A DNA stretch of 55,909 bases, taken from positions 1 to 55,909 of the IMG/VR virus record IMGVR_UViG_3300036781_000607; one strand, given 5' to 3'. This stretch comes from a virus. Positions 19,045 to 39,011 of the stretch are shown one piece after another. The first letter of the stretch is position 1. Every line of letters begins with the position of its first letter. The translations under genes and the position numbers were made by a program. The notes beneath the pieces were generated by a model. The model made no database searches, was not told where the DNA came from, and worked only from the letters and a program-made list of their open reading frames with translations.

Positions 19045-19407
19045 ATGAAAACTCTAATCACCTCAGAACAAGCGTTTATCAACCAATTACAAAGAGCAGT
19101 TGAAAACGGTTTTGAAATAGACCGCGACTTAACTATAAATGAAATTCAAATTGAAGCGCAGGACTTTTTAATATATAATTTGCCGGTAGATAAGTCCGAA
19201 TATTGCGAAGTCTTACAACATGGAACAAGTCAACATGTAGATTATTGCGACGGTTTAGGCACCGTTTACACTTGTGACGGTGAAATAATTGGCTGGAATA
19301 CTTACAGAGATGCCACACCAAATGAAAAATTTGTTCATACAACTATTGTAAACGTAAAAGGCGAAATAGTTCAGTTATACGAAAATCTATGTTTATCTTT
19401 AAGTTAA
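19045..19407 (+). CDS. Hypothetical protein
   Basis: 120-aa ORF. Confidence 0.45.
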   Translation: MKTLITSEQAFINQLQRAVENGFEIDRDLTINEIQIEAQDFLIYNLPVDKSEYCEVLQHGTSQHVDYCDGLGTVYTCDGEIIGWNTYRDATPNEKFVHTTIVNVKGEIVQLYENLCLSLS

Positions 19408-20939
19408 TCATTCAACAAACTAACTACCGGCGCCGGTTCACCCTCAGTGACCGGCCGGTTTTTTCTCCAACCTACGGCAAACTTTCTTTCAGGCCTGCCA
19501 AAATGCCGTAGTATCGCCTGGGCAATCGTATCGGCTAAATCCTGTTTTGCTCCGTTTGGGAATTTTAATATCCCCTGGTCTGTATCGTAATAGATTTTTT
19601 CAAGGATCGAAGCACGGACGTAAATTAACCCTGCCTCTGCTTTAGGCGTGGCCATACGGGAACGCGCCAATTTATCACCAACGACCTGAACGCCGATAGC
19701 TACAATACCTTCAGATTTAAGTAAATTAACCAGGTCAACGCCGCTGGCCTTCGCTTCTACATAATGTGGCTCCGGGTATTCATCGCGCATTAGTTTCATT
19801 AGATCAGGAAATATTTTCCAGTACCAACCAACGCGGTCAATGTACATACGACCGTTAAACATACCAGATGTAACGAACGCGCTGGCTGCATTCGTTTGCT
19901 TATCGGTGTAGGCTGTGTCGCTATCAGTTCCATAACCTGTCATCTCGGCCGGTGACGGCATATCTTTATCAGGTACAGCGATAAACCATTTCTGCCATAC
20001 ACCGCCACCCTCCGGCGCCGGGTCCTGGTCCATTTGACCGGCGAACCCATAACTACCGAGTTCTATTTTAGCATTTGCCAGGACGTCCTCATCCAAACGA
20101 ACCGGGTCCAGTAGCCCGTTTATATAGTACTGCTTTAACTCCGGCGGGTAAACTTTCGGTGACGAACGAACCGGCAAACAGATATGTTTGATCTTACGGC
20201 CTTCCTGGTCCCGCTGGCGCAGCCAAACGCCGGCCGGGTCAAGTTCGTTCAACCGCTGCATAACCATGATCGTTAATGTCACGGCTTTGTCAACTTTTCG
20301 GGTTGATAGCGTGGTATTAACGAACGAAGCTGCCGCCGGCAGGTCTGCTTCACTGATCGATTGTTTAGTGTTCAGCGGATCATCTATTATAATAAGGTGG
20401 GCATGGATCCCCATGACCGTACCGCCGACGGACGTCGCGTACCGTTCACCGTTCATCATATTTTTATAGTTGTTCTTATTGTTCTGGTCCACACGTATCT
20501 CTATTTCCGGGAAATAGGACTTATATTTTGGTGATTGGATAATGTCCCGCGAACGAACGGCATGATCCTGGCTTAAATCGCCGGAGTATGAGGCGCTTAT
20601 GATACGCAGGGTTTGATCGATGGTCCAGGCCCACGCAGGGGCCATAACGGTGATTATCGTTGATTTTAACGAGCCTGGCGGCACATTAACCAGCAGGTCA
20701 TATAGTTTTTGTTCGCGCTTTTTAGCCGGTTGTGTAAAACGAACGCCCTCGAATATGGCCGGTTTCTCTGGTAAACGAACGACCCGCATGATCGCGGTTT
20801 GCACTTCATCACAAATATATTTGATGTGCCAGTTCCAGATCGGATCCTCCGGGATGATCACATCCCAAAATTCCTGGACAAATTCGTATAACGAACGACG
20901 GCACAGCTCAGCTATTGCTTTTGAGGCGTTTATTTGCAT
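19404..20939 (-). CDS. terL: Terminase large subunit
   Basis: 511 aa, with a P-loop-like VPPGSLKST, acidic HLIIIDDP, and a C-terminal nuclease-like half. It lies directly after the small-terminase-like gene. Confidence 0.8.
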   Translation of the reverse strand: MQINASKAIAELCRRSLYEFVQEFWDVIIPEDPIWNWHIKYICDEVQTAIMRVVRLPEKPAIFEGVRFTQPAKKREQKLYDLLVNVPPGSLKSTIITVMAPAWAWTIDQTLRIISASYSGDLSQDHAVRSRDIIQSPKYKSYFPEIEIRVDQNNKNNYKNMMNGERYATSVGGTVMGIHAHLIIIDDPLNTKQSISEADLPAAASFVNTTLSTRKVDKAVTLTIMVMQRLNELDPAGVWLRQRDQEGRKIKHICLPVRSSPKVYPPELKQYYINGLLDPVRLDEDVLANAKIELGSYGFAGQMDQDPAPEGGGVWQKWFIAVPDKDMPSPAEMTGYGTDSDTAYTDKQTNAASAFVTSGMFNGRMYIDRVGWYWKIFPDLMKLMRDEYPEPHYVEAKASGVDLVNLLKSEGIVAIGVQVVGDKLARSRMATPKAEAGLIYVRASILEKIYYDTDQGILKFPNGAKQDLADTIAQAILRHFGRPERKFAVGWRKNRPVTEGEPAPVVSLLND

Positions 20940-22079: not shown

Positions 22080-24212
22080 ATGGAAACCAAAATAGACCTT
22101 TATCCAGACGCCTGGACAACTACCGGTGCCGAAAAAATTACAGTAAGTACCTTTTTAGATAACATTCGTTCTGGTTATTGGCAGGATCAGGTTCTACCCA
22201 TCCGCGCCGCTGTTCAGAAAAACCTGTCAAAGAAACAAATTGATAAGTTAAAAACTTCCATCCCGGCTGCCGCCGCTTCCGGCACTTTTAAAGTTCGTAA
22301 CTCGTCCCCCGACAACCTGGAAAAACATTCCGGTTATCTCGCCATAGATATTGACCATATAAGCAACATAAGCGCCGTAAAGGAACAATTAATGCAGGAC
22401 AGCCTTTTCCACGCCATTTTCATTTCATGCTCAGGACGGGGTATTTGCGGGCTTGTACGGATAAATCCAAAAGCTCATATTGAATCGTTCAATTTTATGT
22501 CCGAGCATATGTTCCTTAAATATGGTCTGAACATCGATGAAAAATGCAAGGATGTTTCCCGGCTGAGGTTCGTTTCATATGACCCGGACTTATACGTTAA
22601 CCAGGACTCACAGATTGCACCAATTAAACCCACACCCAAAAAAGAAAAACAATCACCAAAAAAATATCTCTACACAGATGAAGATTTCCAGCGCATACTG
22701 GACGACATAAAAACCGCTGAACTGGACCTGACCGGCAATTACCAGGACTGGATATACTGTGGGTTCTCCCTGGTTGATAAATTTGGGGAAGAAGGTCGCG
22801 ACCCGTTCCATACGATCAGTATGTTCCATCCAGACTATGACCCGGACAAAGTAGACTATAAATATGATCACCTTTTAAAATCAAAAACCGGCGACCACAC
22901 AATAGACTGGTTCTACCACATAGTTGAAAAGAACGGCCTCACGGCTTACGGTAAAGGCACCGCCGATTTTATACAGCAGGAACTGGCGGAGAAACGGGCC
23001 TATGACGCAGGCCTGAGAGACGAACGCCCTCTTACTTATGCTACGCTTGGTATTATAGACATACCGGCCACCGACCCAATTATCCAGGTGAAGAACTTTG
23101 TACACAAAGCCTACAAGATTCGCAAGAACGAGATGACCGCCGCGCTGGAAGTGAACGGTGAAATGCTGGATGACGAACTGCTGAACACTATTTATATTCT
23201 CTGCCGGTCAGTCATTGAAAAGATTAACGGGCGCGATATTATCTATCACGTACTGGACAGCCGGTTTACCCCGCGTTATCACCTGGTAAAAGATATGATG
23301 GCTAAATATGACGCGGAACCACCGGAACAATCACGTGGTCATATAAAGGCGCTGGTTGACACTTTGGAGACAGACACAGTTTATGCCTACGCTTTCATAA
23401 AGAAATGGCTGGTGGCCCTGATCGCAAGCGCCTACGGCCAGCACAGCGTTCTTGAGCTGATCCTGCAGGGGCCGCAGAACTGTGGCAAGACAGAATGGTT
23501 CCGCAGGCTATTGCCCGTCATCCTGCTACAATACTATGCAGAGAGTAAAATGGATGAGGGTAAAGACGACTTGATCCTGATGAGCAAAAAGCTGATTATC
23601 ATGGATGACGAGCTCAGCGGTAAGTCCAAACAGGAAGAACGTAAAATGAAATCGATCTCATCCAAACAAACCCTTGACCTGCGGGTACCGTTTGGGCGCA
23701 CATCCTCCACACTTAACCGGATCGCTATGCTTGCAGGCACAGCGAACGATGACGAGATCGTGGATGACCCGACCGGTAATCGGCGCCGTATCGTGATCGG
23801 CATCAAGTCAGTGAACTTTGAGGCTTATAATGCAATCGATAAAGAGTTGCTCCTTTATGAGTGCTATCTCGAATACATGGCCGGGTTCAATTATCAGATG
23901 ACCACTGAGGATATATTGTTGCTGGAAAGTGGCGGGCAGCAGTTTAAAAAATCCGTGGTTGAGGAAGAACTGCTCACTAAGTACTTTTGCCTTCCGGCAG
24001 ACTTACCGGAGGCAGAGATCACTGAAATGTCCAGCAGCGAAGTGTTTGACTATATCCGGCCCATGACCAGGCACAATATCAACAGTAATACCCTGGGCAA
24101 GTATTTAAAAAAGCTTGGCTTTGAGCAGAAGCACCGGAAGAACGGTAAAACAACGATCAGGAAATATTTACTGGTGAAAATAAAAGAGCTTACATTAAAT
24201 GATTTAGTATGA
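22080..24212 (+). CDS. Primase-helicase (BT4734/VirE N-terminal primase-like domain plus VirE/D5-like P-loop NTPase)
   Basis: HSGYLAIDIDHI...CSGRGICGLVRI...SRLRFVSYDPDLYVN, and Walker A GPQNCGKT with Walker B LIIMDDE. Confidence 0.75.
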   Translation: METKIDLYPDAWTTTGAEKITVSTFLDNIRSGYWQDQVLPIRAAVQKNLSKKQIDKLKTSIPAAAASGTFKVRNSSPDNLEKHSGYLAIDIDHISNISAVKEQLMQDSLFHAIFISCSGRGICGLVRINPKAHIESFNFMSEHMFLKYGLNIDEKCKDVSRLRFVSYDPDLYVNQDSQIAPIKPTPKKEKQSPKKYLYTDEDFQRILDDIKTAELDLTGNYQDWIYCGFSLVDKFGEEGRDPFHTISMFHPDYDPDKVDYKYDHLLKSKTGDHTIDWFYHIVEKNGLTAYGKGTADFIQQELAEKRAYDAGLRDERPLTYATLGIIDIPATDPIIQVKNFVHKAYKIRKNEMTAALEVNGEMLDDELLNTIYILCRSVIEKINGRDIIYHVLDSRFTPRYHLVKDMMAKYDAEPPEQSRGHIKALVDTLETDTVYAYAFIKKWLVALIASAYGQHSVLELILQGPQNCGKTEWFRRLLPVILLQYYAESKMDEGKDDLILMSKKLIIMDDELSGKSKQEERKMKSISSKQTLDLRVPFGRTSSTLNRIAMLAGTANDDEIVDDPTGNRRRIVIGIKSVNFEAYNAIDKELLLYECYLEYMAGFNYQMTTEDILLLESGGQQFKKSVVEEELLTKYFCLPADLPEAEITEMSSSEVFDYIRPMTRHNINSNTLGKYLKKLGFEQKHRKNGKTTIRKYLLVKIKELTLNDLV

Positions 24213-24928: not shown

Positions 24929-25314
24929 AAAAGTACGTATTAGGCTTTGCATTTGACAAAGGAAAGAGAAAAGTTGTTTTGATCTTGAAAAATTACCCGG
25001 AATTCCAGCGTAATAAGTTCAACGGTATAGGCGGTGAAATTAAAGATGATGAATCACCGGCACAAGCAATGTGCAGAGAATTTTTTGAAGAAACTGGCGC
25101 GATATCTTCGCCAACCGACTGGTATTATTACACCTGTATTAACCATAAAGATTACATTATTTATTGCTTCTGTATGTATTCTGATATAATTAAAGACTGC
25201 TCAACTGTTACGGAAGAAATTATTGTGATAAAACATGTCTCTTTAGTAGAGCATTTACCGCTGGTCACTAAAACCAAAGAATTGTTCCGTTTAGCTTTAT
25301 TAAAAGATAAATAA
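24925..25314 (+). CDS. Nudix hydrolase
   Basis: Nudix box GGEIKDDESPAQAMCREFFEETG. Confidence 0.8.
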   Translation: MKKYVLGFAFDKGKRKVVLILKNYPEFQRNKFNGIGGEIKDDESPAQAMCREFFEETGAISSPTDWYYYTCINHKDYIIYCFCMYSDIIKDCSTVTEEIIVIKHVSLVEHLPLVTKTKELFRLALLKDK

Positions 25315-25333
25315 ATTATTTTTAATAAAAAAC

Positions 25334-25365
25334 TTGTAAATATTAAAAATAAGTTTTTATATTTG
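25334..25365 (+). promoter_or_regulatory. Bacteroidota-type promoter, conserved copy 2
   Basis: TTG at 25334-25336, a 21-nt spacer, then TATATTTG at 25358-25365. Confidence 0.5.
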
Positions 25366-25369
25366 TTAT

Positions 25370-25594
25370 ATGAAAAGTGAATTTGTTGAATATACCCACA
25401 TTTTAAAATTTATAAGGGGTAAAGAAAGTATAGTTATAAGTTTTACAAAAAAGTCTGGATCAGTACATTTCGACGGACTTATAGTTAGAGAAGGATACCA
25501 AGATTTTACTTTTCCTTGGCGAGGTGAAATTAATAGATTAAAAGTTTTATTGTTAATAGACAAATATATTACAATGGCTGTTCAATCTGATTAA
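25370..25594 (+). CDS. Hypothetical protein
   Basis: 74-aa ORF. Confidence 0.45.
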   Translation: MKSEFVEYTHILKFIRGKESIVISFTKKSGSVHFDGLIVREGYQDFTFPWRGEINRLKVLLLIDKYITMAVQSD

Positions 25595-25617
25595 ACCAAA
25601 ACAACTGGTAAATCTCA

Positions 25618-25666
25618 GCGCAACACCAGAAACGGTTTGCGCTTTACCTGGTAAAAAACTTTAAAA
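25618..25666 (+). promoter_or_regulatory. Hairpin plus ACCTGGTAAAAAACTTTAAAA leader unit 1
   Basis: GCGCAA-caCCagaaacGGt-TTGCGC at 25618-25642, then the 21-nt box at 25646-25666, then the ATG at 25670. Confidence 0.6.
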
Positions 25667-25669
25667 ACA

Positions 25670-26077
25670 ATGGAAGAAGTATCAATGGGTAAGATATTCG
25701 GAGTTTCGATATCCTTACTAACAGTAGTCGGAGGTTTAATTGTATTATGTATGTGGGGTTGCCCTCAGTACTCAGTTTATTCCGCCAGGAAACAGGGTGA
25801 AGCAGTTCTTGCTCATGCGCAGTCATCAAGAGAGGTTGCCGTAGCCGAGGCCAAAGCCAAAATGGAGTCCGCCGCTTTACTGGCACAAGCTGACACCATC
25901 AGGGCACATGGCGTTGCACGTTCAAACATCATTATAGGGCAGTCACTGACAGATGCGTACCTGCACTGGTACTGGATCGATAATATAGAGAAAAACCCGA
26001 ATGCGGTCATCTATGTGCCCACAGAGGCCAACCTGCCGATCATGGAAGCAGGACGATTTAAACAGCCTGTAAAATAA
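25670..26077 (+). CDS. Small N-terminally anchored membrane protein, SPFH/band-7-like C-terminal region
   Basis: TM segment ISLLTVVGGLIVLCMWG, then an Ala/Glu-rich helix and a GQSLTDAYLHWYWIDNI segment. The family call is weak. Confidence 0.4.
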   Translation: MEEVSMGKIFGVSISLLTVVGGLIVLCMWGCPQYSVYSARKQGEAVLAHAQSSREVAVAEAKAKMESAALLAQADTIRAHGVARSNIIIGQSLTDAYLHWYWIDNIEKNPNAVIYVPTEANLPIMEAGRFKQPVK

Positions 26078-26082
26078 AGCTC

Positions 26083-26131
26083 ACCCCGCACTGAAACAAA
26101 TGCGGGGTTAACCTGGTAAAAAACTTTAAAA
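26083..26131 (+). promoter_or_regulatory. Hairpin plus leader unit 2 (box identical to unit 1)
   Basis: ACCCCGCA-ctgaaacaaa-TGCGGGGT at 26083-26108, then the identical 21-nt box at 26111-26131, then the ATG at 26134. Confidence 0.6.
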
Positions 26132-26133
26132 CT

Positions 26134-26526
26134 ATGAATTTATTATTTTGGAAACACAAAAAAGAAGCGCATGTAATTAAAAAGCAGTGTTACGACAAAT
26201 TACCGTCAACCTTGCAGAATCACTACCATCCAAGTGATGAACAACCTACGCATCACTATGACGATGACAGCGGACTGATCACGGGTATAGTTATTGGCGA
26301 AATGCTGGCCGATAACAGCACGGCACCTGATAGCTCACCAGCAGATAATAGTCCTTCATTTGATGGATTTGGCGGCGGAGATTTTGGTGGAGGTGGCTCA
26401 TCCGACAGTTTTGATACCCCGGATTCAGGCGGATCAAGCTATGATAGTGGTAGCTCTTATGACAGTGGTAGCTCTTATGACAGTGGTAGCTCTTATGACA
26501 GTGGTAGTAGTTCATCTGATTATTAA
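26134..26526 (+). CDS. Low-complexity Gly/Ser/Asp-rich protein with SSYDSG tandem repeats
   Basis: 130 aa, ...GGGDFGGGGSSDSFDTPDSGGSSYDSGSSYDSGSSYDSGSSYDSGSSSSDY. Confidence 0.5.
   Translation: MNLLFWKHKKEAHVIKKQCYDKLPSTLQNHYHPSDEQPTHHYDDDSGLITGIVIGEMLADNSTAPDSSPADNSPSFDGFGGGDFGGGGSSDSFDTPDSGGSSYDSGSSYDSGSSYDSGSSYDSGSSSSDY
26434..26505 (+). repeat. Four tandem 18-bp repeats encoding SSYDSG
   Basis: The unit agctcttatgacagtggt occurs three times exactly, preceded by a diverged copy. Confidence 0.85.
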
Positions 26527-26547
26527 TCATTGCTAATCCTGCCAACG

Positions 26548-26590
26548 CCCCGACGCCATAAACCGGCTCGGGGTTAACCTGGTGAAATGA
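26548..26590 (+). promoter_or_regulatory. Hairpin plus partial leader unit 3
   Basis: CCCCGAcGCC-ataaacc-GGCTCGGGG at 26548-26573, then TTAACCTGGTGAAA. Confidence 0.5.
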
Positions 26591-26670
26591 AATTGATATT
26601 ACTTTCAAAAAGTTAAAGCAGGAGGTCACATGTAAGGTTCATAATTGGTTTAGGTTTAAGTAAACCATTA

Positions 26671-26715
26671 GCGTAACGCCAGCAACGGTTTACGCTTTTG
26701 GTAGTAAAAAGAAAA
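26671..26715 (+). promoter_or_regulatory. Hairpin plus diverged leader unit 4
   Basis: GCGTAA-cgCCagcaacGGt-TTACGC at 26671-26695, same architecture as unit 1 with a compensatory C:G to T:A pair. It is followed by TTTTGGTAGTAAAAAG and the ATG at 26721. Confidence 0.55.
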
Positions 26716-26720
26716 CAATT

Positions 26721-27158
26721 ATGAAAATAACAGTTGAAGTAAATGGTAAGCCAGTAGAAATTGAGCTTACAAAAGATCAGGTTGCTTTCGTTAAAAAGCA
26801 ACCACAAAAGATCACTGATCGGATTAAAACTTTTCAGGATGTACTTGATTACATTGGCTTGGAAAGGGCTAATGAATTTTATAAATCTTGTGAAAATTGT
26901 TCAGATCACAATATTGCTGACAAGCAGGTAGAACTGATTTGCGAAGTTTTAAACGAAGGTTGGATAGCAAATCCTTTTAATACAAAGCAATACAAATATT
27001 ATCCTTATTTCCAGGTAAGCGGTTCTGCCTTTGTGTTCCACAACTGCGCTTGGTACCGGATTACGATTGTCGGCTCGCGGCTTTGCTACAAAAATGCTGA
27101 ACTGGCTACATACGCAGGAAAACAATTCGTAGACATTTACACTAAACTATTATCATAA
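26721..27158 (+). CDS. DGR variable protein 1 (145 aa), paralog of 27158-27574
   Basis: Contains VR1. The two share MK..(I/V).VNGK.VEIELT.DQ...VKK...KITDRIKT, NEGW, QYKY.PYF, GSAFVF and IVGSRLC. Confidence 0.8.
   Translation: MKITVEVNGKPVEIELTKDQVAFVKKQPQKITDRIKTFQDVLDYIGLERANEFYKSCENCSDHNIADKQVELICEVLNEGWIANPFNTKQYKYYPYFQVSGSAFVFHNCAWYRITIVGSRLCYKNAELATYAGKQFVDIYTKLLS
27021..27086 (+). repeat. DGR variable repeat VR1 (one codon shorter than the TR)
   Basis: Aligns to TR 27585-27653 with 11 substitutions, all at TR adenines, and one 3-nt deletion. It diverges from the TR after ...ctttgc. Confidence 0.75.
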
Positions 27159-27574
27159 TGAAACTTCCTATCCAGGTAAACGGAAAAACCGTTGAAATTG
27201 AGCTCACTAACGATCAGATCGAAATAGTGAAAAAAGCAAATCAGAAAATTACTGATCGTATTAAAACTGAAGAAGATATTTGGCGCGAGGCAGGAGTCAC
27301 TAAAAGTTTTTGGGGGAAACTACATGTGTTTGATCAGTTAGCTTTGTTAGGTTCTATTTTGAATGAAGGGTGGAAACCTGATTGGAATGATTCAAGTCAG
27401 TACAAGTATGAACCATACTTTAAATGGAACGGTTCTGCCTTTGTGTTCGACAGCTACATCGCTTGGAGCCAGCATACGATTGTCGGCTCGCGGCTTTGCT
27501 TTAAAAGTAGCGACTTAGCTATTTATACAGGAAAACAGTTTATCGATTTATATAATAAAATATTGAGTTTGTAA
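27158..27574 (+). CDS. DGR variable protein 2 (138 aa)
   Basis: Contains VR2, which ends 22 codons before the C-terminus. Confidence 0.85.
   Translation: MKLPIQVNGKTVEIELTNDQIEIVKKANQKITDRIKTEEDIWREAGVTKSFWGKLHVFDQLALLGSILNEGWKPDWNDSSQYKYEPYFKWNGSAFVFDSYIAWSQHTIVGSRLCFKSSDLAIYTGKQFIDLYNKILSL
27431..27506 (+). repeat. DGR variable repeat VR2
   Basis: 76 nt, collinear with the TR. There are 11 mismatches, every one at an A in the TR: AAC>GAC, AAC>AGC, AAC>ATC, GAA>GCT, AAC>AGC, AAT>CAT, AAT>ATT, AGC>GGC, CAG>CGG, CTA>CTT. Confidence 0.9.
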
Positions 27575-27584
27575 TTACCGGCGC

Positions 27585-27660
27585 GGTTCTGCCTTTGTGT
27601 TCAACAACTACAACGAATGGAACCAGAATACGAATGTCAGCTCGCAGCTATGCTTTAAAA
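27585..27660 (+). repeat. DGR template repeat (TR)
   Basis: Non-coding copy between target 2 and the RT. It is rich in AAY codons when read in the VR frame (4 AAC, 2 AAT). Confidence 0.9.
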
Positions 27661-27752
27661 CCTTATTGCAAACTTTACCAGCAAGGTAGAAAAATAAAAA
27701 TTTAAAAGGGTTGTGGTAGTCTCCGGACGAAGCAAACCTTATAAAAAGCAAA

Positions 27753-28715
27753 ATGAAAAGATTAGGCAATCTATATACGGAGATTTGTAGCAAGGATAAC
27801 ATCATTCTGGCTGATCAGAGAGCGCGTAAGCGAAAAGCTAAACAAAGAACTATTAAATTATTTGATGTAAACAGAGAGGCTAATTTAGCTTCTATTGTTA
27901 ACATTTTATCTGAGCAAACTTACAAAGTCTCTGGGTATGAAACTTTCAAAACTTTTGAAGGTAAAGAACGTCTGATATTTAAATTGCCTTATACTGATCG
28001 TGTAGTTCAACATGCTATAATGAATGTATTGGAACCGATCTTTAGAAATTACTTTATAGCCCATACTTATAGTTGTATAAAAGGCCGCGGTATTCACAGG
28101 GCAAAAAATGATGTGGAGAAAGCTTTGAAACAAGGCTTTATGTATTGCCTGAAACTTGATGTAGTTAAATTTTATCCATCAGTCGATCACGAGATTTTGA
28201 AACAGCTTTTAAGAACAAAATTCAAGGATCAGAAATTATTAGGTTTACTGGATACGATCATTGAATCAGCACCAGGTTTACCAATAGGCAACTATCTGAG
28301 TCAGCCTTTAGCTAATTTTTATCTGACACCTTTTGACCGCTGGATAAAAGCAAAGAAATTTCCCTATTTCAGGTATGCAGACGACATGGTCATTTTATCA
28401 TCGAATAAGGCTGAGCTTCAAACTTTACTGCATGAAATTATAGGTTATCTGAAAGATAATTTAAAGCTTGATATCAAAGGAAATTACCAGGTATTTCCTG
28501 TAGCGGCCAGAGGTATTGATTTTGTAGGCTACCGGATTTTTCATACGCACGTAAAACTGCGTAAGTCAATTAAGCTCCGTTATATTAAAACCATGTTGAA
28601 TAATCCGTCAGATACTTCAAAAGCAGCGTATAACGGATGGTTAAAACATTGTGATTCAAAAAACTTAAAAAATAAATATGACACAAGTAATATTTACACT
28701 GATCATCATAGCTGA
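27753..28715 (+). CDS. DGR-type reverse transcriptase
   Basis: N-terminus MKRLGNLYTEICSKDNIILADQRARKRK, the IGNYLSQ motif characteristic of DGR RTs, and catalytic RYADDMVIL. Confidence 0.9.
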   Translation: MKRLGNLYTEICSKDNIILADQRARKRKAKQRTIKLFDVNREANLASIVNILSEQTYKVSGYETFKTFEGKERLIFKLPYTDRVVQHAIMNVLEPIFRNYFIAHTYSCIKGRGIHRAKNDVEKALKQGFMYCLKLDVVKFYPSVDHEILKQLLRTKFKDQKLLGLLDTIIESAPGLPIGNYLSQPLANFYLTPFDRWIKAKKFPYFRYADDMVILSSNKAELQTLLHEIIGYLKDNLKLDIKGNYQVFPVAARGIDFVGYRIFHTHVKLRKSIKLRYIKTMLNNPSDTSKAAYNGWLKHCDSKNLKNKYDTSNIYTDHHS

Positions 28716-28893
28716 ATTAGGAATTTTAACTTATCAAAGTGGAAAGAGTCGTAGTAAAAATTAGACCTCAGAACAGCGAAGCATGGTTCCAGCGCAGATG
28801 GCTATGGACCTGGTGGACCGTAAAGTTTAAAATAGGCTCAACAGGCGAAGTACTGGATTGGGCTGATGCGCAGAACGTACATATCATTATACA

Positions 28894-29232
28894 GTGACTG
28901 ATAATCAGAAAAAGTTAAGGGCCACTACCACGCATTGCAGGTATTGTGGCCAGGCGTTCCACGGCAAAGTAACGGCAACGTTTGACCACTTCTACCCACT
29001 GGACAAACAAGGCCCGAACAGGATGTGGAACAGGTTCGTAGTCTGCAGGGCGTGTAACCAGGACAAAGGCAATAAAATGCCGCAGGAGTTTATAGTGCAC
29101 CTGCTGCATAAGATAAAGCATAACAAGGATATTAACACTAAATATTTCACCCGCGCCAGTAAAACGATAGCTAATATGCTGATCATTGAAGAACAAATCT
29201 GGCCATTATTTGAAGGAAAGGATATATTATGA
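28894..29232 (+). CDS. HNH endonuclease
   Basis: GTG start. CRYCGQ...FDHFYPLDKQGPN..WNRFVVCRACNQDKGNKMP. Confidence 0.8.
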   Translation: MTDNQKKLRATTTHCRYCGQAFHGKVTATFDHFYPLDKQGPNRMWNRFVVCRACNQDKGNKMPQEFIVHLLHKIKHNKDINTKYFTRASKTIANMLIIEEQIWPLFEGKDIL

Positions 29233-29393
29233 AAACATTATTAGAATTACTTTCTGAACAAGAAGAACAAATTAGAATATGGGTTGATGATAATCCAGAA
29301 GCTACTGAACACGAATTTAATGTGGCTAATAATTGTGTAGTTACATTAAACTTTTCAGTTGAAATATTAACACCTAAAAATGATGAAAACTGA
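29229..29393 (+). CDS. Small hypothetical protein (54 aa)
   Basis: ATGA overlap with the HNH stop. Below the ORF-track cutoff. Confidence 0.35.
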   Translation: MKTLLELLSEQEEQIRIWVDDNPEATEHEFNVANNCVVTLNFSVEILTPKNDEN

Positions 29394-29568
29394 AAACACT
29401 TTTAAAGTCATCCGTAACCAAACCACCTCGGAAATGTCTGACCTGATCGGCAGATCCGACTGGAAGAAACCGCAGCTGAACCCGCCCCATTTCCCCGACG
29501 CAAGTGAACGTGAGGTGCATTTCGGGGTATTAGGCAGATTGTTGAAACGTTTAACTAAGAAGCCATGA
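29380..29568 (+). CDS. Hypothetical protein
   Basis: 62-aa ORF. Confidence 0.4.
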   Translation: MMKTENTFKVIRNQTTSEMSDLIGRSDWKKPQLNPPHFPDASEREVHFGVLGRLLKRLTKKP

Positions 29569-29801
29569 AAACAAATTGCTTAAATTCTCACATGGGTGAA
29601 AGTCATAACAGTCGGGCGGATAAAATGTCCGGTATTCCTAAAGCTAATCGTCACCGGCTTGAAGCAATGGCGAAACTTGGGGTTGAAAGAGGTATAAGTG
29701 GTTTAGGTGAACAGAATAAGCAAGGACCATTTGGCAAAAAATTTTATGGGAGAAAACGCAGGATGTTTTTAAAGAACCCTGAAAACTGGGAGAAGATATG
29801 A
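29565..29801 (+). CDS. Hypothetical basic protein
   Basis: 78-aa ORF with overlapping start and stop codons. Confidence 0.45.
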   Translation: MKTNCLNSHMGESHNSRADKMSGIPKANRHRLEAMAKLGVERGISGLGEQNKQGPFGKKFYGRKRRMFLKNPENWEKI

Positions 29802-30088
29802 GTAGAAATAGTTCAGCCTTCATCCAACTCCCAAACGGTGGAACGGCTTTCATTGATGGCCTCAAACAGGACCATGAGTGTAACTCCCACGGTGACGCGG
29901 AGTACCAGACTGCCAGCGGTAAGATGATTTACTGGCACACGCAGCGACAGTGGGCGCATTTGACCACCAAGGCCCGCAGACCACTGCTCTATGCCTACTA
30001 TTCAAGCATCGATGATCCGATCTGTATGGAAACCTGCACCTGTTCAATTTGTAAAGAAAGTAGTATAAGTAAAGCATATTGGTTATGA
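29798..30088 (+). CDS. Hypothetical Cys-rich protein
   Basis: 96-aa ORF. Confidence 0.45.
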   Translation: MSRNSSAFIQLPNGGTAFIDGLKQDHECNSHGDAEYQTASGKMIYWHTQRQWAHLTTKARRPLLYAYYSSIDDPICMETCTCSICKESSISKAYWL

Positions 30089-30324
30089 AAGAAGAAATGG
30101 CAATTATCAGTGACATACACGTAGGCATTCGTGATACGAATCAAGTGATATGTTGGTTTACAGTGACTATGATAGGTTCAGGTTCACTACAAATAATAAG
30201 CATTCAAGAAATGGTTGATTTAATGCAACGAGAGGGTATTTATAAGTTAGAAGATGTTAACGGAAAACCTTGTATCGTTGAGACTGATAGTGGCATGTGC
30301 AAATTTAAAAGATTACTAAAGTGA
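30079..30324 (+). CDS. Hypothetical protein
   Basis: 81-aa ORF. Confidence 0.45.
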   Translation: MVMKEEMAIISDIHVGIRDTNQVICWFTVTMIGSGSLQIISIQEMVDLMQREGIYKLEDVNGKPCIVETDSGMCKFKRLLK

Positions 30325-30869
30325 TCACTTTCCAGGAACATAAAGAAACAGGCTATGCCATGCGGACCTGGGATAATGCCAGGCTCAGTGACCTGACCAT
30401 TGCTTTTGCGATAAACTTTAATACACCTGGTGAGATACTGACTCGGAAAGCTGCTTATGGAAAATATCACGGAGTGGAATTATTGGAATTATTGGAATTT
30501 CCGGAACAACCAGTGCTTACTACTTTATTAGAAATGAGGCGTAGACAGGCTACCTGCATTAATATTGCAGGTAACGGTATTTACTCCCTCAGTAAATTAA
30601 TAGACCAGATAACTGCTGATCAACTGATGTTTAATTTTGTGAAAAAACTGGCTATGAACTGTATGTGGAGCTTTTCAATACGTTCTGGCGGTCAAACTGG
30701 TGTTGATGAAGCAGCGTTAAAAGCCGGGGACAAACTTGGCCTGGAAACAATCTGCCTGGCGCCGAAGCACTGGATGTTCAGGGACATAAACGGCAGGGAT
30801 ATTATTGGCCAGGAGGCTTTGTTCCTGAAACGTTTTGGAGAGAAATATGATGCAACTGATATATTATGA
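30321..30869 (+). CDS. SLOG / YpsA / MoCo-carrier-like protein
   Basis: IRSGGQTGVDEAALKAGDKLGLETICLAPKHW resembles the SGGQTGVD..AL..A...G motif of that family. Confidence 0.45.
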   Translation: MITFQEHKETGYAMRTWDNARLSDLTIAFAINFNTPGEILTRKAAYGKYHGVELLELLEFPEQPVLTTLLEMRRRQATCINIAGNGIYSLSKLIDQITADQLMFNFVKKLAMNCMWSFSIRSGGQTGVDEAALKAGDKLGLETICLAPKHWMFRDINGRDIIGQEALFLKRFGEKYDATDIL

Positions 30870-32115: not shown

Positions 32116-33465
32116 ATGATCTACAAGCCTCATTCATACCAATCCTACGCCATACAGCATTTACTTGATAATCCTGCTGCGGCCCTGTGGCTTTCTGTAG
32201 GACTTGGCAAGAGTTCTATTACGTTAACTGCTATTGAATGGCTGTTAGGTACGTTGGCGATTGATAAAGTCCTTATTGTCGCGCCAAAGCGTGTTGTAGC
32301 ACATACTTGGCCATCGGAACTGAAGAAGTGGTCGCATCTTTCCCATTTAAAAATATCTGTCATCCAGGGCAATGAAAAGCAGCGGATACAGGCGCTTTAC
32401 ACCAAAGCTGATATTTATGCTGTGAGCCGTGATTTGATTGCATGGTTGGTTCACTATATAGGTAAGAACAAAGGTAAGTGGCCCTTTGACATGCTGGTCG
32501 TAGACGAAAGTTCAAATTACAAGAACCCATCAGCTCAACGCTTCAAAGCGTTGAAAAGAATTTTACCTTATTGCCGGCGCACAGTTATACTTTCCGGGAC
32601 TCCAAGCCCAAACGGTCTTTTAGGGTTATGGTCCCAAATCTACCTTTTAGATAAAGGGGAACGCCTGGGGCATACGTATGGAGCGTATAAAGATGAATAT
32701 TTTATCGCTGGGGCAAAACAGGGGCACATTGTTTTTAATTATTATCCAAAGAAAGATGCTGAGCAAAAGATATTTGAAAAAATTTCTGATATCGCACTCA
32801 GCATGGATAAAAAAGATCATTTACTCGATCTGCCGCCGAGATATGATATTTACCAGGAAGTTGAACTTCAAAGCTATAAACGTTATGAAGAATTTAAGAA
32901 AAACGAGGTACTTATTTTAAAAGACGGGTTTGAATTGACTCCGGTTAATGCCGCCAGTATGTACGGAAAATTGCTCCAATACTGTAATGGAGCGGTATAT
33001 CGTGGTGATGGCTCATACGAAATTGTTGATAACTCAAAATTGGAAGAACTTCAGGAAGATGTAGAGGCGTTAGACTCCGATCCGGTATTTATCGTGTACC
33101 AGTTTCAATCCGATTATGAACGGTTTTTAAAGGCCTTTCCTGGTATTGTAAAAGTACAAAGTGATCAACAAATTGACGATTGGAATGCTGGTCTTATACC
33201 AATTGCCTGTTCACAGATACAGTCTTTAGCCTACGGGGTTAATTTGCAAGAAAGCGGGAATCATCTTTATCATTTTGGTTTAGGATGGGATTTGGAACTT
33301 TATCAGCAATTCTGTGGCCGCCTGGACAGGATGGGTAAAAAGAAAGCTACGATCAATAAACATTTTGTTGCAAAGGGCTCGATTGAGCAACTTGTTATAG
33401 AACGATTAGCTGGGAAGTATGATACGCAGGAAAAGCTGATGCAGGCGCTTAAAAGATTTCTATAA
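32116..33465 (+). CDS. SNF2-family helicase
   Basis: LGKSS (Walker A-like), MLVVDESSNYKNP (DExx), LSGTPSPNG. Confidence 0.8.
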   Translation: MIYKPHSYQSYAIQHLLDNPAAALWLSVGLGKSSITLTAIEWLLGTLAIDKVLIVAPKRVVAHTWPSELKKWSHLSHLKISVIQGNEKQRIQALYTKADIYAVSRDLIAWLVHYIGKNKGKWPFDMLVVDESSNYKNPSAQRFKALKRILPYCRRTVILSGTPSPNGLLGLWSQIYLLDKGERLGHTYGAYKDEYFIAGAKQGHIVFNYYPKKDAEQKIFEKISDIALSMDKKDHLLDLPPRYDIYQEVELQSYKRYEEFKKNEVLILKDGFELTPVNAASMYGKLLQYCNGAVYRGDGSYEIVDNSKLEELQEDVEALDSDPVFIVYQFQSDYERFLKAFPGIVKVQSDQQIDDWNAGLIPIACSQIQSLAYGVNLQESGNHLYHFGLGWDLELYQQFCGRLDRMGKKKATINKHFVAKGSIEQLVIERLAGKYDTQEKLMQALKRFL

Positions 33466-34236
33466 AATATCGTACATATTTTCAACAGCGTCAATATACT
33501 CCTGAGATTCTTTTACATATTCTTCGCTGATATCACAGCCTAAATAATTTCTGCCATTTCTTTTTGCTTCAGCACACGTAGTTCCGGATCCGGAAAAAGG
33601 ATCAAAAACAAGGTCCCCAATATTTGACCAGGTATTAATATGATCAGCGGCTAATTGTTCTGGAAATACAGCAGGATGATTTTTACCGCTATTTCCACAA
33701 GCATAGTAAAATATATTACCAGGTATTTTTTCTTCTTTTACAGTTACTTCTTCGGCCCGGCGCCTGAATGATCCTTCTTTAAAACCATACCCTTTATGGC
33801 TTAAATTTTGCTTCATACCGCCAGTTCTGCTTTTTACCAGTAAAGGATTGAATGTAGAGATATTCCCTTTGACAAAGACAAACATATATTCAAATTCCTG
33901 CTCATAACGTTTATGCGTTTGTGGAATAAAATTCAATTTTCCATAAATCATGGTATCGTGTAGTTTGAAACCTAAACTTATAAAAAATAAAGCTTGCCTG
34001 AAAGAATCTCCAGACTCAGAACCGTTCACAGTATGATCGCCCACAACCCAAACTAATATGCCACTGTTTTGAGTTATACGATATAGATTTGTTGCAGTGC
34101 GTTCAAAATCAAAAGTAAAGCCATTATACTTTCTTAATTTTTTACCGTAAGGAGGTGAAGAAACTGTTAATTTTATATGATTAGCCGGAAGGCTGTCCAT
34201 AAAATAATTACATTCTGAGCAAACTATTTTATTCAT
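33460..34236 (-). CDS. DNA methyltransferase (N6-adenine or N4-cytosine, SPPY type)
   Basis: LTVSSPPYGKK and LVFDPFSGSGTTCAEAKRNGRNYLGCDISEEY. Confidence 0.8.
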   Translation of the reverse strand: MNKIVCSECNYFMDSLPANHIKLTVSSPPYGKKLRKYNGFTFDFERTATNLYRITQNSGILVWVVGDHTVNGSESGDSFRQALFFISLGFKLHDTMIYGKLNFIPQTHKRYEQEFEYMFVFVKGNISTFNPLLVKSRTGGMKQNLSHKGYGFKEGSFRRRAEEVTVKEEKIPGNIFYYACGNSGKNHPAVFPEQLAADHINTWSNIGDLVFDPFSGSGTTCAEAKRNGRNYLGCDISEEYVKESQEYIDAVENMYDIL

Positions 34237-36344
34237 TATTTTTTGTAATAATCTCCTACGAATCCGTCAGCAAAAATAGGCCAGGTTTTTGCCCATTCAG
34301 GAACATCTAACATTAATTCCTTAATTGTGTCAAAGCTTACAGAGCCTTTTTTTACTTCCAGGACACACTCATCATGCACCGAGAGTACAACAGGGTATCC
34401 GGCGTTTTCAATATTCATAATAGAGTGCATTAAAAGATCACGGCTGATACCCTGAGTAAAATTTTCCACCAGGCGCGGGCCAAATGTTTCAATTATACCC
34501 CATTGTTTTGTAGTTTGATTCTGCCCCCAGAAGCATACGGTTTCACGGGTATTAGGTTTAGTACCATCATCTTTTAAGTTGAGTTTTTTAAGATACCAGT
34601 AATACTCATCCATGGTACCGCGCCTTACTTCTCCAACTTTTACATTTTTTATCTCGATCACATATTCTTTGGTTTCTTCATCTAATTTCATTGAAGGAAT
34701 GTGGGCAATATAAAATTTTCGTAAATGTGCTTTATGGTAAACAATACACCTGCCCGAGGGGAATTTCATTAGCAAATTGCCATTCTTCATGCCGAAAGCT
34801 ATACCATGTTTAACCGGTGAAAACTCCCCTGTCCTAATCGCGTTCTTTGCGGCCGCATCCGTATCCCACCACAATTGAACAATATTGGCATTGGCCTCCC
34901 GGAAAGCTTTGATCAGCCCCGGCATTTCTTTTACAGGGATTCGCTTCTTTGGATCTTCGATGGTTTCGTTCATGCGCTCCATGGCTAAATGACTGCCCCC
35001 ATATTGCCCTAATAAAAACGATATTTTTGCTTTTTGCCGCTGGTCTTTCGTAACTTCCTCGAAAGGAACTTTGAACATATTAACAGCCGTCTTTTTATAT
35101 ACGTCCTCTTTGTTGGCAAAAGCTTTGATTAGCCAGGTTTCATCTGCGAGGCAACTGAGAGTTACAGCCTCCACGCTCGTGAAGTCTAAAACAATAAATT
35201 CATTGCCTTCATCTGCTATAAAAGTAGGTCTTAATAACTGTGATAACACATCAGATAAATCGGGGAATATCATGTGTAAAGAATCTATATCTCTACGTTT
35301 TACTACTTCCCTGGTATCATCCAGCATAGGTTCAAACCATTCTTCGATTCGCCTGAAATTTTGACCGTTAAAAATTCTGCCGGCTTCTCGACCGGTCCTG
35401 TTAGCACCGTAGTATTGAGTAAGGCCGCGCACCCTGAAATCTTCCCCGGCGGCAGCTTTCATTGAGGCATATTTTTTGATACTGGACCGGGACATTAACT
35501 GCCTGATACGTAAAATTCGTTTTGCGGGGCCTTCGTCTATTTCATTAAGCAACTTACTGACAGTTTGTTTATTCAGATTATCAAGAGCATCTTCAGTTTC
35601 TAATTCCAGCCATTTTTTAAGTTGCGTAGGCGAATTTACATTTTTAAGACCTGTTAAATTAACAGCTTCTTCAGTAAGTTCAGCCCGGTAAACCCGGTCC
35701 AGTTCCATAGCCGAATCGATCAAATCAATATCAACTTTAATTCCGCGTTCATTTTTAAGTTCATTCAGACACCAGATTTGATGCTCTTTCTTCGGAATAC
35801 TATACCATTCGCAAGCTTTATGAACAGCCTGTTCTACCTCGACGTCAATTTTATTATAATTTTTAAATTGCTCCCATTTCTCAGGGTCATGTTCAGGCAA
35901 GTTACGGGTACGCATACCATTAACCGCTGTTGGCTTACAGGGAATGCAAAAATACCTGATCAGCGACTTGCCGATAGGGTCTTTTTTTTCAATCAGTCCA
36001 AGGGCTTTACTGGCGTCATCCAGGCTTAAAGGCAATCCGCACATAGCGGCCCTGACCAAACTACACTCCCATTGCTCCGCAGGTGAATAGATATCTAATA
36101 CAGTGTTAAGATATCCGCGTTCGTAGGGAGCATTATAAGCACGTTTAATATAGTTCGGATCAGTGAATGCTGATAAAAGCCACGCAGGTATTTTTTCTTT
36201 GGTTAAATCCAGTACAATAACAGGACCATAATCGAGTGAATACGCGAGCAGGATTATCTCACCGGACTCAGCACGTTTATAAACACCATACTTGATGTCA
36301 ACGGGGCTAAAATCTTCTATATCGAGGGATAAGATGTGTTTCAT
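34236..36344 (-). CDS. Family A DNA polymerase with 3'-5' exonuclease domain
   Basis: LSLDIEDFS (Exo I), the KISFLLGQYGG region, VLSVHDECVLEV (motif C). Confidence 0.85.
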   Translation of the reverse strand: MKHILSLDIEDFSPVDIKYGVYKRAESGEIILLAYSLDYGPVIVLDLTKEKIPAWLLSAFTDPNYIKRAYNAPYERGYLNTVLDIYSPAEQWECSLVRAAMCGLPLSLDDASKALGLIEKKDPIGKSLIRYFCIPCKPTAVNGMRTRNLPEHDPEKWEQFKNYNKIDVEVEQAVHKACEWYSIPKKEHQIWCLNELKNERGIKVDIDLIDSAMELDRVYRAELTEEAVNLTGLKNVNSPTQLKKWLELETEDALDNLNKQTVSKLLNEIDEGPAKRILRIRQLMSRSSIKKYASMKAAAGEDFRVRGLTQYYGANRTGREAGRIFNGQNFRRIEEWFEPMLDDTREVVKRRDIDSLHMIFPDLSDVLSQLLRPTFIADEGNEFIVLDFTSVEAVTLSCLADETWLIKAFANKEDVYKKTAVNMFKVPFEEVTKDQRQKAKISFLLGQYGGSHLAMERMNETIEDPKKRIPVKEMPGLIKAFREANANIVQLWWDTDAAAKNAIRTGEFSPVKHGIAFGMKNGNLLMKFPSGRCIVYHKAHLRKFYIAHIPSMKLDEETKEYVIEIKNVKVGEVRRGTMDEYYWYLKKLNLKDDGTKPNTRETVCFWGQNQTTKQWGIIETFGPRLVENFTQGISRDLLMHSIMNIENAGYPVVLSVHDECVLEVKKGSVSFDTIKELMLDVPEWAKTWPIFADGFVGDYYKK

Positions 36345-38984: not shown

Positions 38985-39011
38985 CAAGTTAAAAATGTTA
39001 AACTGAGTAAA

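Follow-up and report, generated by a model that had tools for sequence, protein, structure and literature searches.

A complete DGR with two small tandem targets and no recognisable Avd gene in the replication region of a phage genome

Described systems and the place of the locus among them

Phage DGRs are usually seen as host-range switches, a picture from which a family of small, soluble targets encoded in early modules departs. Where accessory genes are treated in Wu et al. (2018, NAR 46:11, PMC5758913), Avd homologues are given for 74% of DGRs, hence about a quarter are without one; 29% fall into architecture A (TR-RT), which has no accessory gene of any kind, and one whole lineage is named as lacking avd. 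Where VRs are classified in that work, one class is labelled CLec3. The target family that concerns us here was catalogued as PC_00007 by Roux et al. (2021, Nat Commun 12:3076, PMC8144416, Supplementary Note 8), who list it as "Phage_other" and "non-structural/unknown", assign it to DGR clade 1 with hosts Bacteria:FCB and record members in tandem, one as the primary and one as the secondary target of a single RT. PhANNs called only 1.6% of the members structural, the authors caution that the family could be an unrecognised structural protein, and in their table some RTs carry both a tail-type (structural) PC_00002 target and a PC_00007 target, which ties the family loosely to receptor-binding biology. 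PC_00007 appears there without an analysis of context, accessory genes or RNA, and without discussion in the main text.

Two other systems are close in part. In the crAss-like phage cr55_1 (NC_055869.1) the TR and RT also directly follow the target gene and no Avd is annotated, but the target is a 572-aa annotated tail protein, and the phage has neither a PC_00007 homologue nor the 99-aa domain described below. Hankyphage (Benler et al., 2018, PMC6199706) shares a Bacteroidota host and a Mu-like transposable backbone with one of our related loci, L005, but its DGR diversifies an ORF of >2,200 aa that contains a C-type lectin domain, and a small Avd-like ORF was reported beside its RT.

The DNA that we analysed, hereafter the window, is the whole stretch of 55,909 nt that forms positions 1 to 55,909 of IMG/VR record IMGVR_UViG_3300036781_000607. 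Its DGR cassette and immediate surroundings comprise the following features.

26670-26698, plus strand: hairpin followed by a U-run, 22 nt upstream of the target-1 start
26721-27158, plus strand: target 1, 145 aa, 16.8 kDa, pI 7.6; PC_00007 / phrog_11581
27019-27093, plus strand: VR1, in target 1
27158-27574, plus strand: target 2, 138 aa, 16.0 kDa, pI 6.7
27430-27506, plus strand: VR2, in target 2
27565-27675, plus strand: P1, predicted 11-bp long-range helix, 27565-27575 with 27665-27675 (window minimum-free-energy fold)
27584-27660, plus strand: TR, 77 nt, 24 A (31% A)
27676-27688, plus strand: P2, predicted short conserved hairpin directly 3' of P1
27701-27745, plus strand: P3, predicted stem-loop in the TR-RT spacer, just upstream of the RT start codon
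27753-28715, plus strand: DGR RT, 320 aa, full length
28739-28897, plus strand: small ORF, 52 aa, GTG start, between the RT and HNH genes
28894-29232, plus strand: HNH endonuclease gene, 112 aa (HNH_5, E = 1e-9)

A sequence-only reading of this DNA had presented the context of the DGR as unusual, a view that is not supported: both the Avd-less kind of DGR (the 29% above) and the target family are already in published catalogues. The two targets match PC_00007 members by BLASTP (E = 1e-21 to 1e-31, the latter value for target 1 against one member) and by HMM (E = 1e-49 to 1e-55), and both match phrog_11581 (E = 8e-18 for target 1 and 5e-14 for the other). In an alignment, the family core in the targets reads KITDRIKTFEDA ... 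LNEGWKPDW ... YKYYPWF ... GSRLCFKS-ELA-YAGKQF. Our target profile HMM also matched (E = 1e-20 to 1e-27) t120 (NZ_AMSG01000002.1) and t121 (AKZJ01000008.1), two small CLec3-class entries of Wu et al. (2018) whose sequences come from the supplement of Roux et al. (2021). These references have stand-alone targets of 123-156 aa with a VR near the C terminus that ends in GSRL, arranged in tandem in t120 as in the window, whereas the window subfamily differs in its N-terminal beta-hairpin and helix with sub-threshold similarity to ZapA. No match among 50,697 phage records was obtained by megablast with 25000-30500 or by tblastn with target 2.

The repeats and transfer from the TR

The target genes overlap by 1 nt, the stop of the first with the start of the second, and encode paralogues of 52% identity. 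The VRs occupy the 3' part of these two protein-coding genes, with 65 nt (VR1) and 68 nt (VR2) left between the VR end and the ORF stop. The stop codon of target 2 (27572-27574) is separated from the TR by 9 nt, and 92 nt lie between the TR end at 27660 and the RT ATG at 27753, which bears out the close spacing given in the sequence-only reading; the DGR and the ORFs it had delimited for the targets, the RT and the HNH endonuclease were likewise found at the positions listed above.

Read in the VR frame, the TR encodes GSAFVFNNYNEWNQNTNVSSQLCFK, with six AAY Asn codons. All 11 mismatches between VR2 and the TR fall on TR adenines, a pattern with a chance of about 0.31^11 = 3e-6 if mismatches were placed at random. 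VR1 has 11 substitutions at A and two at T (27655-27656), and it lacks one codon through a deletion of 3 nt in frame. Neither a third TR-like copy nor a remote VR, for example in a tail gene, was found within the window. The RT matches RVT_1 (E = 2e-18) and phrog_1423 (E = 2e-105), has the motifs IGNYLSQ and YADD, and is 59% identical to the RT of t121 and 52% identical to that of t122 in the reference set of Wu et al.; its closest relatives in the cultured and curated phage collection are RTs of crAss-like phages, with 50-53% identity over 96% of the query. The window thus contains a complete DGR, confirmed as a genuine mutagenic retroelement.

The last ~15 nt of the TR (27646-27660) are IMH*-like in their behaviour: the window and its closest relative, L083, the DNA of which is 87% identical to the window, have four VRs between them, and every one departs from the TR at 27646 (A to G) and 27650 (A to T, synonymous). 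These fixed TR/VR differences at the 3' boundary are comparable to those between IMH and IMH* in BPP-1. Further features shared with BPP-1 (mtd-avd-TR-brt) are a dedicated RT, adenine-specific transfer from TR to VR, a VR near the 3' end of the target gene and a structured TR-RT spacer. The window differs in having no Avd, a shorter TR (77 nt, against 134 nt in BPP-1), and two tandem targets of 16 kDa in a replication module in place of the tail-fibre protein Mtd; neither an Mtd nor a C-type lectin fold was detected in the window target.

In the mechanism that we propose, RNA from the end of target 2 through the TR and the 92-nt spacer would fold, with a long-range helix around the TR and two hairpins after it; the 320-aa RT would copy the TR, misincorporating opposite adenines, and the cDNA would replace the homologous VR in either of the two translationally coupled paralogous genes. 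Transfer would reach its 3' limit between TR positions 27639 and 27646, and ~10 codons, mostly AAY, would be randomised.

Did transfer continue in the recent history of this phage? A further new point bears on this: at TR position 27593 the TR, VR1 and VR2 of the window have C, where each of the three L083 repeats has T, a synonymous change (GCC to GCT). Since in each phage the variant is common to the TR and both VRs, it is likely that the TR was transferred into both targets after the two phages diverged, and the comparison, made with this single relative, indicates retrohoming after the split of the window phage from L083. VR1 may no longer be homed in the window phage, because it has the codon deletion and differences at positions other than A.

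Other close relatives have lost more of the element. L001 and L008 keep the targets and have no RT, and L002-L004 keep the targets with a 135-aa RT stump and a TR remnant, so that the element is decaying in the window's phage group. One could go further and see in the window itself a recent relic, in which RT and TR are intact in sequence, homing has ceased and the targets are now fixed proteins. Such a reading would accommodate not only these relatives but also the deletion and two non-A differences of VR1 and the absence from the window of a ~99-aa ORF conserved in the lineage (see below). Against it, the RT is full length with its motifs intact, the RNA elements around the TR are preserved, the differences of VR2 are purely at adenines, and in the window phage as in L083, each of which is without the ~99-aa ORF, both VRs repeat a synonymous change of the TR. 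We consider it improbable that the DGR is a relic.

Related loci, accessory genes and the RNA around the TR

We screened 82 related loci, 55 of which have one to four (usually two) tandem small targets, a gap and then the RT, the gap having a median of 213 nt and a maximum of 249 nt. These 55 loci are mostly from Bacteroidota and lie among replication or Mu-like early genes. TR-VR mismatches in most of them number typically 12-20 per VR, nearly all at TR adenines, and a few gave short or poorly A-biased TR-VR local alignments. No relevant publication came up in a literature search on DGRs of Flavobacterium, Elizabethkingia or Mu-like phages. The target family comprises 4,961 clusters at 50% identity, and among the best 150 of these almost all members are stand-alone proteins of ~155 aa or apparent tandem fusions. 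The apparent fusions are of 250-350 aa, and recoded stop codons are a possible alternative explanation for them.

Small ORFs between 21.9 and 31.4 kb gave no match to Avd (23S_rRNA_IVP), HRDC or MutS-like (MutS_I) families in Pfam and NCBIfam at E <= 1, in agreement with the earlier report of no recognisable avd here. Gaps of 9 nt and 92 nt leave no room for an Avd ORF, and the gaps across the related loci are also too short for an ORF. There is a conserved ORF of ~99 aa that abuts the RT in 52 related loci, and this is a new point on the DGR lineage. A Foldseek search with a model of the 99-aa protein gave weak matches only (E = 0.3-0.8), with OB-fold domains frequent among them, and a profile search of the PDB returned nothing. 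The window's phage group differs from the PC_00007 lineage in being without this ORF: a search of the window in six frames with HMMER filters off gave a best E of 1.1, and the ORF is also absent from L001, L002, L008, L083 and the crAss-like cr55_1. At the place where the 52 loci carry it, the window has the 52-aa ORF, for which no family match was found and which is itself absent from L083, where a different small hydrophobic ORF stands instead.

The HNH endonuclease gene had been put forward as the nearest accessory candidate. We rejected it in that role, since it has no conserved co-occurrence with the RT across the lineage: besides the window, homologues among the 82 related loci are restricted to L001, L008 and L083, of which L001 and L008 are without an RT, and in L001 the gene precedes the targets. 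In L083 as in the window, it does hold the post-RT position of the ~99-aa ORF, and both phages show signs of past homing, so one might suppose that the HNH protein stands in for Avd or for the 99-aa protein, perhaps as a nickase that opens the VR and so primes integration of the cDNA. We regard this as very improbable. A homologue beside the RT is missing from all 55 loci that have an RT; the local GC of 45-49%, compared with about 35% in the cassette, is ~10 points higher and suggests separate acquisition; and HNH genes of unrelated PHROGs are common in such replication modules. We judge the gene to be an unrelated, probably mobile, neighbour of the DGR.

P1 would enclose the whole TR, its 5' strand overlapping the stop codon of target 2. 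RNAalifold on 40 loci predicts 24 pairs, with compensatory changes in 20 of the 24; the equivalent of P1 in those loci is a 12-bp helix with compensatory changes at most pairs, and the minimum-free-energy fold of the window has the same three elements. The small inner hairpin of P3 differs in sequence from that of L083 with its pairing kept. The predicted TR-enclosing fold is supported by this covariation and is a new point for the lineage, which offers a route into Avd-independent mutagenic retrohoming.

The targets and what they may bind

The description of the targets as small, soluble proteins stands: with a maximum Kyte-Doolittle 19-residue mean of 0.93 they have neither a TM segment nor a signal peptide, and no Pfam domain was found in them. 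The AF2 model of target 2 has a mean pLDDT of 85.5, falling to 63-67 in the VR region, which is coil-rich. Foldseek with the target model gave no PDB match below E = 1.8 and no C-type lectin entry, and against BFVD it returned uncharacterised proteins of uncultured phages only; a search of PDB sequences with the target profile gave no C-type lectin and no informative match. FGE-sulfatase, DUF1566 and Mtd were absent from the 25 Pfam families most matched by 54 family members, and the window target matched none of them. The large CLec3 target t122 gave nothing in a phmmer search of the PDB, and hhalign of the small targets with t122 aligned 14 residues, at the VR end only. Because the VR region is of lower confidence and coil-rich in the model, it may have a minimal or divergent lectin-like fold.

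The N terminus of the window subfamily, ~45 residues modelled as a beta-hairpin and helix, resembles ZapA (PF05164). Eight of 10 subfamily members match positions 1-48 of the 88 in that profile, in the same register, at 12.8-20.8 bits, under the Pfam cut-off of 23.8; in the family overall 11 of 54 members match, and ZapA is the top PDB match of the target model in Foldseek (at the E of 1.8 given above). We treat this likeness as a lead only.

The cassette lies where it had been placed, in an early or replication region far from the minus-strand tail genes. Primase (22080-24212), SNF2 helicase (32116-33465) and PolA (34236-36344) flank it, and the tail-type genes on the minus strand, a beta-helix tail-spike-like gene (44057-45265) and large presumed tail ORFs (46.8-55.9 kb), are 16-28 kb away. 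The placement holds across the lineage. Among the six nearest ORFs of each of 25 loci (150 ORFs), the PHROGs that come up most often are those of methyltransferases, helicases, primases, replication initiators, ParB and HNH, and the top 25 include no head or tail family; in the Mu-like loci the cassette sits between Gam and a GemA-like gene; and a replication or early placement is seen on three or more distinct phage backbones.

What, then, are the targets diversified to bind? With genome position as a proxy for expression timing, localisation and binding, they would most plausibly act inside the infected cell, as early-expressed proteins, unrecognisable as virion parts, that bind a variable ligand there. 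Taken as a whole, the account in which a complete DGR of a catalogued Avd-less Bacteroidota-phage lineage, active since the split from L083, diversifies such binders seems to us somewhat better than an even bet. We count in favour of a non-structural role the absence of a TM segment and a signal peptide from the window targets, and the DNA-metabolism neighbours found across the 25 loci. The targets could instead be unrecognised virion parts, tail-tip adaptors or fibre-docking decoration proteins, in which case the DGR would change host range. Roux et al. (2021, PMC8144416) explicitly allow for this, and their RTs with both PC_00002 and PC_00007 targets fit it; so does the 3' end of the VR, VGSRLCF, a CLec3-type motif that t122 and other tail-type targets have at their C terminus, and the RTs of crAss-like phages with 52% identity to ours directly follow an annotated tail protein. 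The likeness to tail-type targets, however, amounts to 14 residues on which the TR and IMH impose a DNA-level constraint as well, no known adhesin or C-type lectin fold came up in Foldseek, PhANNs calls very few of the family structural, and the neighbours are mainly replication and DNA-metabolism genes, in a placement found on several backbones. We hold a virion role to be unlikely.

If the preferred reading of intracellular binding is correct, DGRs also drive an intracellular arms race between phage and host, and the family is a compact, naturally evolvable binding scaffold of ~140 aa. A more specific proposal, which we offer tentatively and hold to be doubtful, is that PC_00007 proteins in general are early cytoplasmic hypervariable binders that Bacteroidota phages direct against variable host factors, such as defence components or, through the ZapA-like N terminus of the window subfamily, cell-division proteins, and are diversified by an Avd-free DGR with a TR-enclosing fold and, mostly, a ~99-aa beta-barrel partner. 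Were this true, it would be the first DGR to diversify a counter-defence or host-takeover protein and not a receptor-binding protein. The role of the targets is open to experiment, since related loci are present in cultured strains, namely Elizabethkingia miricola GTC 862, E. meningoseptica WHH, Flavobacterium facile T-12, Dyadobacter sp. Leaf189, Apibacter muscae G8 and Yeosuana marina JLT21.

A further feature lies 5' of the cassette. The hairpin at 26670-26698 is stable, with a dG of -18.3 kcal/mol (z = -4.4), and is repeated at 25617-25645 with a compensatory change (2 matches vs 0 expected). It is probably terminator-like or regulatory punctuation that marks the cassette edge.

Genomic placement of the DGR and its targets

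We found that the sequence-only reading, which described an atypical DGR with soluble targets encoded in an early region, was right as an observation of non-structural, early-module targets, whereas the novelty it attached to the lack of Avd and to the target family (both already catalogued) and its link to an HNH gene did not hold. The cassette consists of the following features.

26721-27158, plus strand: target 1 ORF, 145 aa
27019-27093, plus strand: VR1, differing from the TR at 11 adenine sites and 2 T positions (27655-27656), with one codon missing
27158-27574, plus strand: target 2 ORF, 138 aa, its ATG overlapping the target-1 stop by 1 base
27430-27506, plus strand: VR2, with 11 differences from the TR, 11/11 at TR adenines
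27584-27660, plus strand: TR, 77 nt, intergenic, 24/77 A
27753-28715, plus strand: RT ORF, 320 aa (RVT_1 E = 2e-18; phrog_1423 E = 2e-105)
28739-28897, plus strand: 52-aa ORF with a GTG start, preceding the HNH ORF
28894-29232, plus strand: HNH endonuclease ORF, 112 aa (HNH_5 E = 1e-9)

Around it, the genes are arranged as follows.

4800-6098, minus strand: major capsid protein
15585-17036, minus strand: portal
19404-20939, minus strand: terminase
22080-24212, plus strand, same block as the cassette: primase / VapE-like helicase
plus strand, same block: NUDIX hydrolase
30321-30869, plus strand, same block: circularly permuted YpsA-like SLOG-family protein (E = 8.5e-10)
32116-33465, plus strand, same block: SNF2 helicase
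34236-36344, convergent to the cassette block: DNA polymerase A gene
38958-40163, replication region: DUF2800 / PD-(D/E)XK nuclease (E = 7e-130)
44057-45265, minus strand: beta-helix protein
46.8-55.9 kb, minus strand: large presumed tail ORFs
minus strand: GH25 lysin

The YpsA-like protein and the DUF2800 nuclease may have nucleotide-modification or recombination functions. A 130-aa ORF (26134-26526) without a family match has a low-complexity, acidic, Ser/Gly/Asp-rich C terminus built of 18-nt tandem repeats (SSYDSG units, 26440-26507).

The target pair stays in the same replication module in the nearest relatives of the window, namely L001 (whose primase is 75% identical to the window's), L002-L004, L008 (from a Mucilaginibacter MAG) and L083 (87% DNA identity over 2.2 kb). 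In a Mu-like prophage, L005, the order is repressor, transposase, MuB-like ATPase, Gam, three targets, TR, RT and a weak GemA-like match (Pfam E = 0.003, under the gathering score), so that the position of the cassette corresponds to the early region of Mu. When the three closest ORFs to either side of the cassette were compared with PHROGs at 25 loci (150 proteins), the commonest families were DNA methyltransferases, helicases, primases, an ATPase, replication-initiation and ParB-like proteins, nucleotide-metabolism enzymes and HNH endonucleases, and head or tail families were absent from the 25 most frequent. Judged by gene content and position, which is the sense in which we use "early", the non-structural, early-module character of the targets thus appears to be real and to hold across the lineage.

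The target family and its possible ligand

Both targets are near-neutral 16-kDa proteins in which the highest mean hydropathy over 19 residues is only 0.93, and therefore, as had been claimed, they have neither a TM segment nor a signal peptide. Both match phrog_11581, a family of unknown function, and have 148 homologues of 130-160 aa in a 90%-identity protein collection. An exhaustive profile search extended the family to 4,961 clusters at 50% identity, and among the best 150 of these nearly all are stand-alone proteins or apparent tandem fusions. The apparent fusions of tandem paralogues (P0217-P0242 and others), at 250-350 aa, show two stretches that match the family; they may point to an interaction between the long and short forms, or may have arisen artificially, through recoded stop codons or the merging of gene calls.

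The family is not new. Roux et al. 2021 (PMC8144416) include members such as IMG 2585424986/7 and 2588220293/4 in their sequence supplement as primary and secondary targets of one RT, and place them in PC_00007, a cluster of class "Phage_other" (DGR clade 1, host Bacteria:FCB) that goes undiscussed in the main text. The same supplement holds t120 and t121 of Wu et al. 2018 (PMC5758913), which have small, tandem, CLec3-class targets. Our target HMM matched the PC_00007 members at E = 1e-49 to 1e-55 and the t120 and t121 targets at E = 1e-20 to 1e-27, so that direct comparison of the sequences confirms their homology to the window's targets; the RTs of the window and t121 are 59% identical.

Target 2, modelled by AlphaFold2 from 54 homologues (mean pLDDT 85.5), has a beta-hairpin (2-15), five helices (18-68), a coil-rich stretch (69-117) that contains the VR and where pLDDT drops to 63-67, and two C-terminal helices. 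Foldseek gave no match below E = 1.8 in the PDB and, in BFVD, only uncharacterised proteins from uncultured gut phages, and profile searches found no FGE-sulfatase, DUF1566 or Mtd similarity. Only 14 residues, where the VR ends (VGSRLCF), resemble a large CLec3 tail-type target, and this stretch is constrained at the DNA level too, by TR and IMH. On this model the VR scaffold could be a minimal lectin-like fold or another fold. The N-terminal half of ZapA (PF05164) is matched by the first ~45 residues, the beta-hairpin and a helix (26721-26860, 27158-27300), in the same register in 8/10 members of the window's subfamily but at sub-threshold scores (12.8-20.8 bits, cut-off 23.8). ZapA was also the top, non-significant, Foldseek match in the PDB, and other target subfamilies have different N termini; we treat this similarity as a lead only.

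A worthwhile question arising from the window is "What is the ligand of the PC_00007 proteins?" We consider an intracellular ligand the likeliest answer, with about an even chance of being correct. Its main rival, that the targets have a cryptic virion role, seems to us distinctly less probable, at around half that chance. Roux et al. 2021 rate the cluster "non-structural/unknown". Only 1.6% of PC_00007 members were classed as structural by PhANNs, but the authors, who report this figure, caution that the cluster could still consist of uncharacterised structural proteins.

Template, RNA structure and past activity

A 77-nt repeat occurs in three copies, with no further TR-like copies elsewhere in the window, and the copy at 27584-27660 is the TR because it is intergenic and adenine-rich. 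In the VR reading frame it encodes GSAFVFNNYNEWNQNTNVSSQLCFK with six AAY codons, the usual DGR design, and the RT has both IGNYLSQ and YADD. Our measurements bear out the short distances that had been reported: 9 nt separate the target-2 stop and the TR, and 92 nt lie between the TR and the RT start. A stable hairpin with a compensatory base-pair change between its two copies (25617-25645 and 26670-26698; z = -3.5 and -4.4), each followed by a U-run, lies ~22-25 nt ahead of the next start codon, that of the ORF at 25670 and of target 1, respectively; these hairpins look like terminators or regulatory punctuation.

In an alignment of 40 TR-containing intergenic regions (A4), the RNAalifold consensus had 24 pairs, and compensatory changes were seen in 20. 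It comprises P1, a 12-bp helix with strands on both sides of the entire TR, P2, a short hairpin directly 3' of P1, and P3, a stem-loop before the RT start, and all three are found in the window's own minimum-free-energy fold.

27565-27575 pairing with 27665-27675, plus strand: P1, its 5' strand overlapping the target-2 stop codon
27676-27688, plus strand: P2
27701-27745, plus strand: P3

Two changes, 27646 A-to-G and 27650 A-to-T (synonymous), are fixed in 4/4 VRs of the window and L083 while position 27639 varies among them, which sets the 3' limit of cDNA transfer between 27639 and 27646; by analogy with BPP-1, we infer that the segment past this limit behaves like an IMH/IMH* pair. At position 27593 (a synonymous difference), the window has C in its TR and in both of its VRs, and L083 has T in all three repeats. 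This concerted pattern is best accounted for by retrohoming into each of the two targets since the phages split, and hence the DGR has been active in a sub-lineage that lacks both Avd and the ~99-aa ORF described below. The present homing status of VR1 is uncertain, given the codon deletion it has acquired since.

The DGR is decaying in the closest relatives while the targets persist: L001 and L008 have no RT but still carry two or three target paralogues (L001:7229-8417; L008:10001-15376), and in L002-L004, represented by 29 contigs, a 135-aa stump is left of the RT, together with a remnant of the TR (L002:7564-9004). Retention of the targets in such genomes argues that they are useful without continuous diversification, as noted in another phage DGR system (bioRxiv 10.1101/2024.10.15.618418).

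Accessory genes

The claim that avd is not recognisable was borne out, as no small ORF between 21.9 and 31.4 kb matched Avd (23S_rRNA_IVP / four-helix-bundle), HRDC or MutS-like families in Pfam or NCBIfam at E <= 1. A scan with the target alignment, taking one genome per species, gave 77 loci; Bacteroidota supply nearly all of them, Ignavibacteria and Chlorobi the few others. Of 82 related loci that we screened, 55 have one to four (usually two) tandem small targets followed by a gap and an RT of ~320 aa; since this gap (median 213 nt) never exceeds 249 nt, no Avd gene fits between targets and RT. TR-VR mismatches are typically 12-20 per VR, almost all at TR adenines in most RT-bearing loci, although in a few the local alignments are short or poorly A-biased. 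Avd homologues were present in only 74% of the 372 DGRs surveyed by Wu et al. 2018, who assigned 29% to an architecture A (TR-RT without an accessory gene) and named one lineage that "notably lacks avd genes". As their survey and the 55 loci agree, the absence of Avd is a lineage trait and ordinary for such DGRs, not the oddity it had been taken for, and the window adds a member to a recognised DGR type.

Does another protein take the place of Avd? In 52 loci (e.g., L005:10456-10758, L009:10105-10404) an ORF of ~99 aa begins at the RT stop or overlaps it, and in L052 the ORF and the RT are fused. Its family, which has no Pfam match, is far more conserved than the targets; the 96 matches to it, at 48-93% identity, all carry the annotation "hypothetical". 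The AlphaFold2 model is a small beta-barrel with short helices (mean pLDDT 88.6) to which Foldseek found weak matches only (E = 0.3-0.8), several to OB-fold nucleic-acid binders. In most of the lineage this protein may serve the DGR as an accessory of its own, filling the role of Avd. The ORF is absent from all six frames of the window and from L001, L002, L008, L083 and the crAss-like phage cr55_1, and its absence from the window's group indicates that the protein is dispensable or substituted by something else.

The HNH gene, proposed as the nearest accessory candidate, we reject in that role. Besides the window, homologues among the 82 loci occur only in L001, where the gene lies upstream of the three targets, and L008, both without RT, and the GC content of the HNH segment is 45-49% vs about 35% for the cassette. 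L083 likewise carries a homologue after its RT, but this is not independent evidence because L083 is a close relative. We conclude that the HNH gene is a separate gene, possibly a mobile one. The RT-HNH junction is a variable spot, its short ORF differing between the two closest phages: a Trp-rich 52-aa ORF in the window (28739-28897) and a hydrophobic peptide of ~41 aa in L083 (2740-2860).
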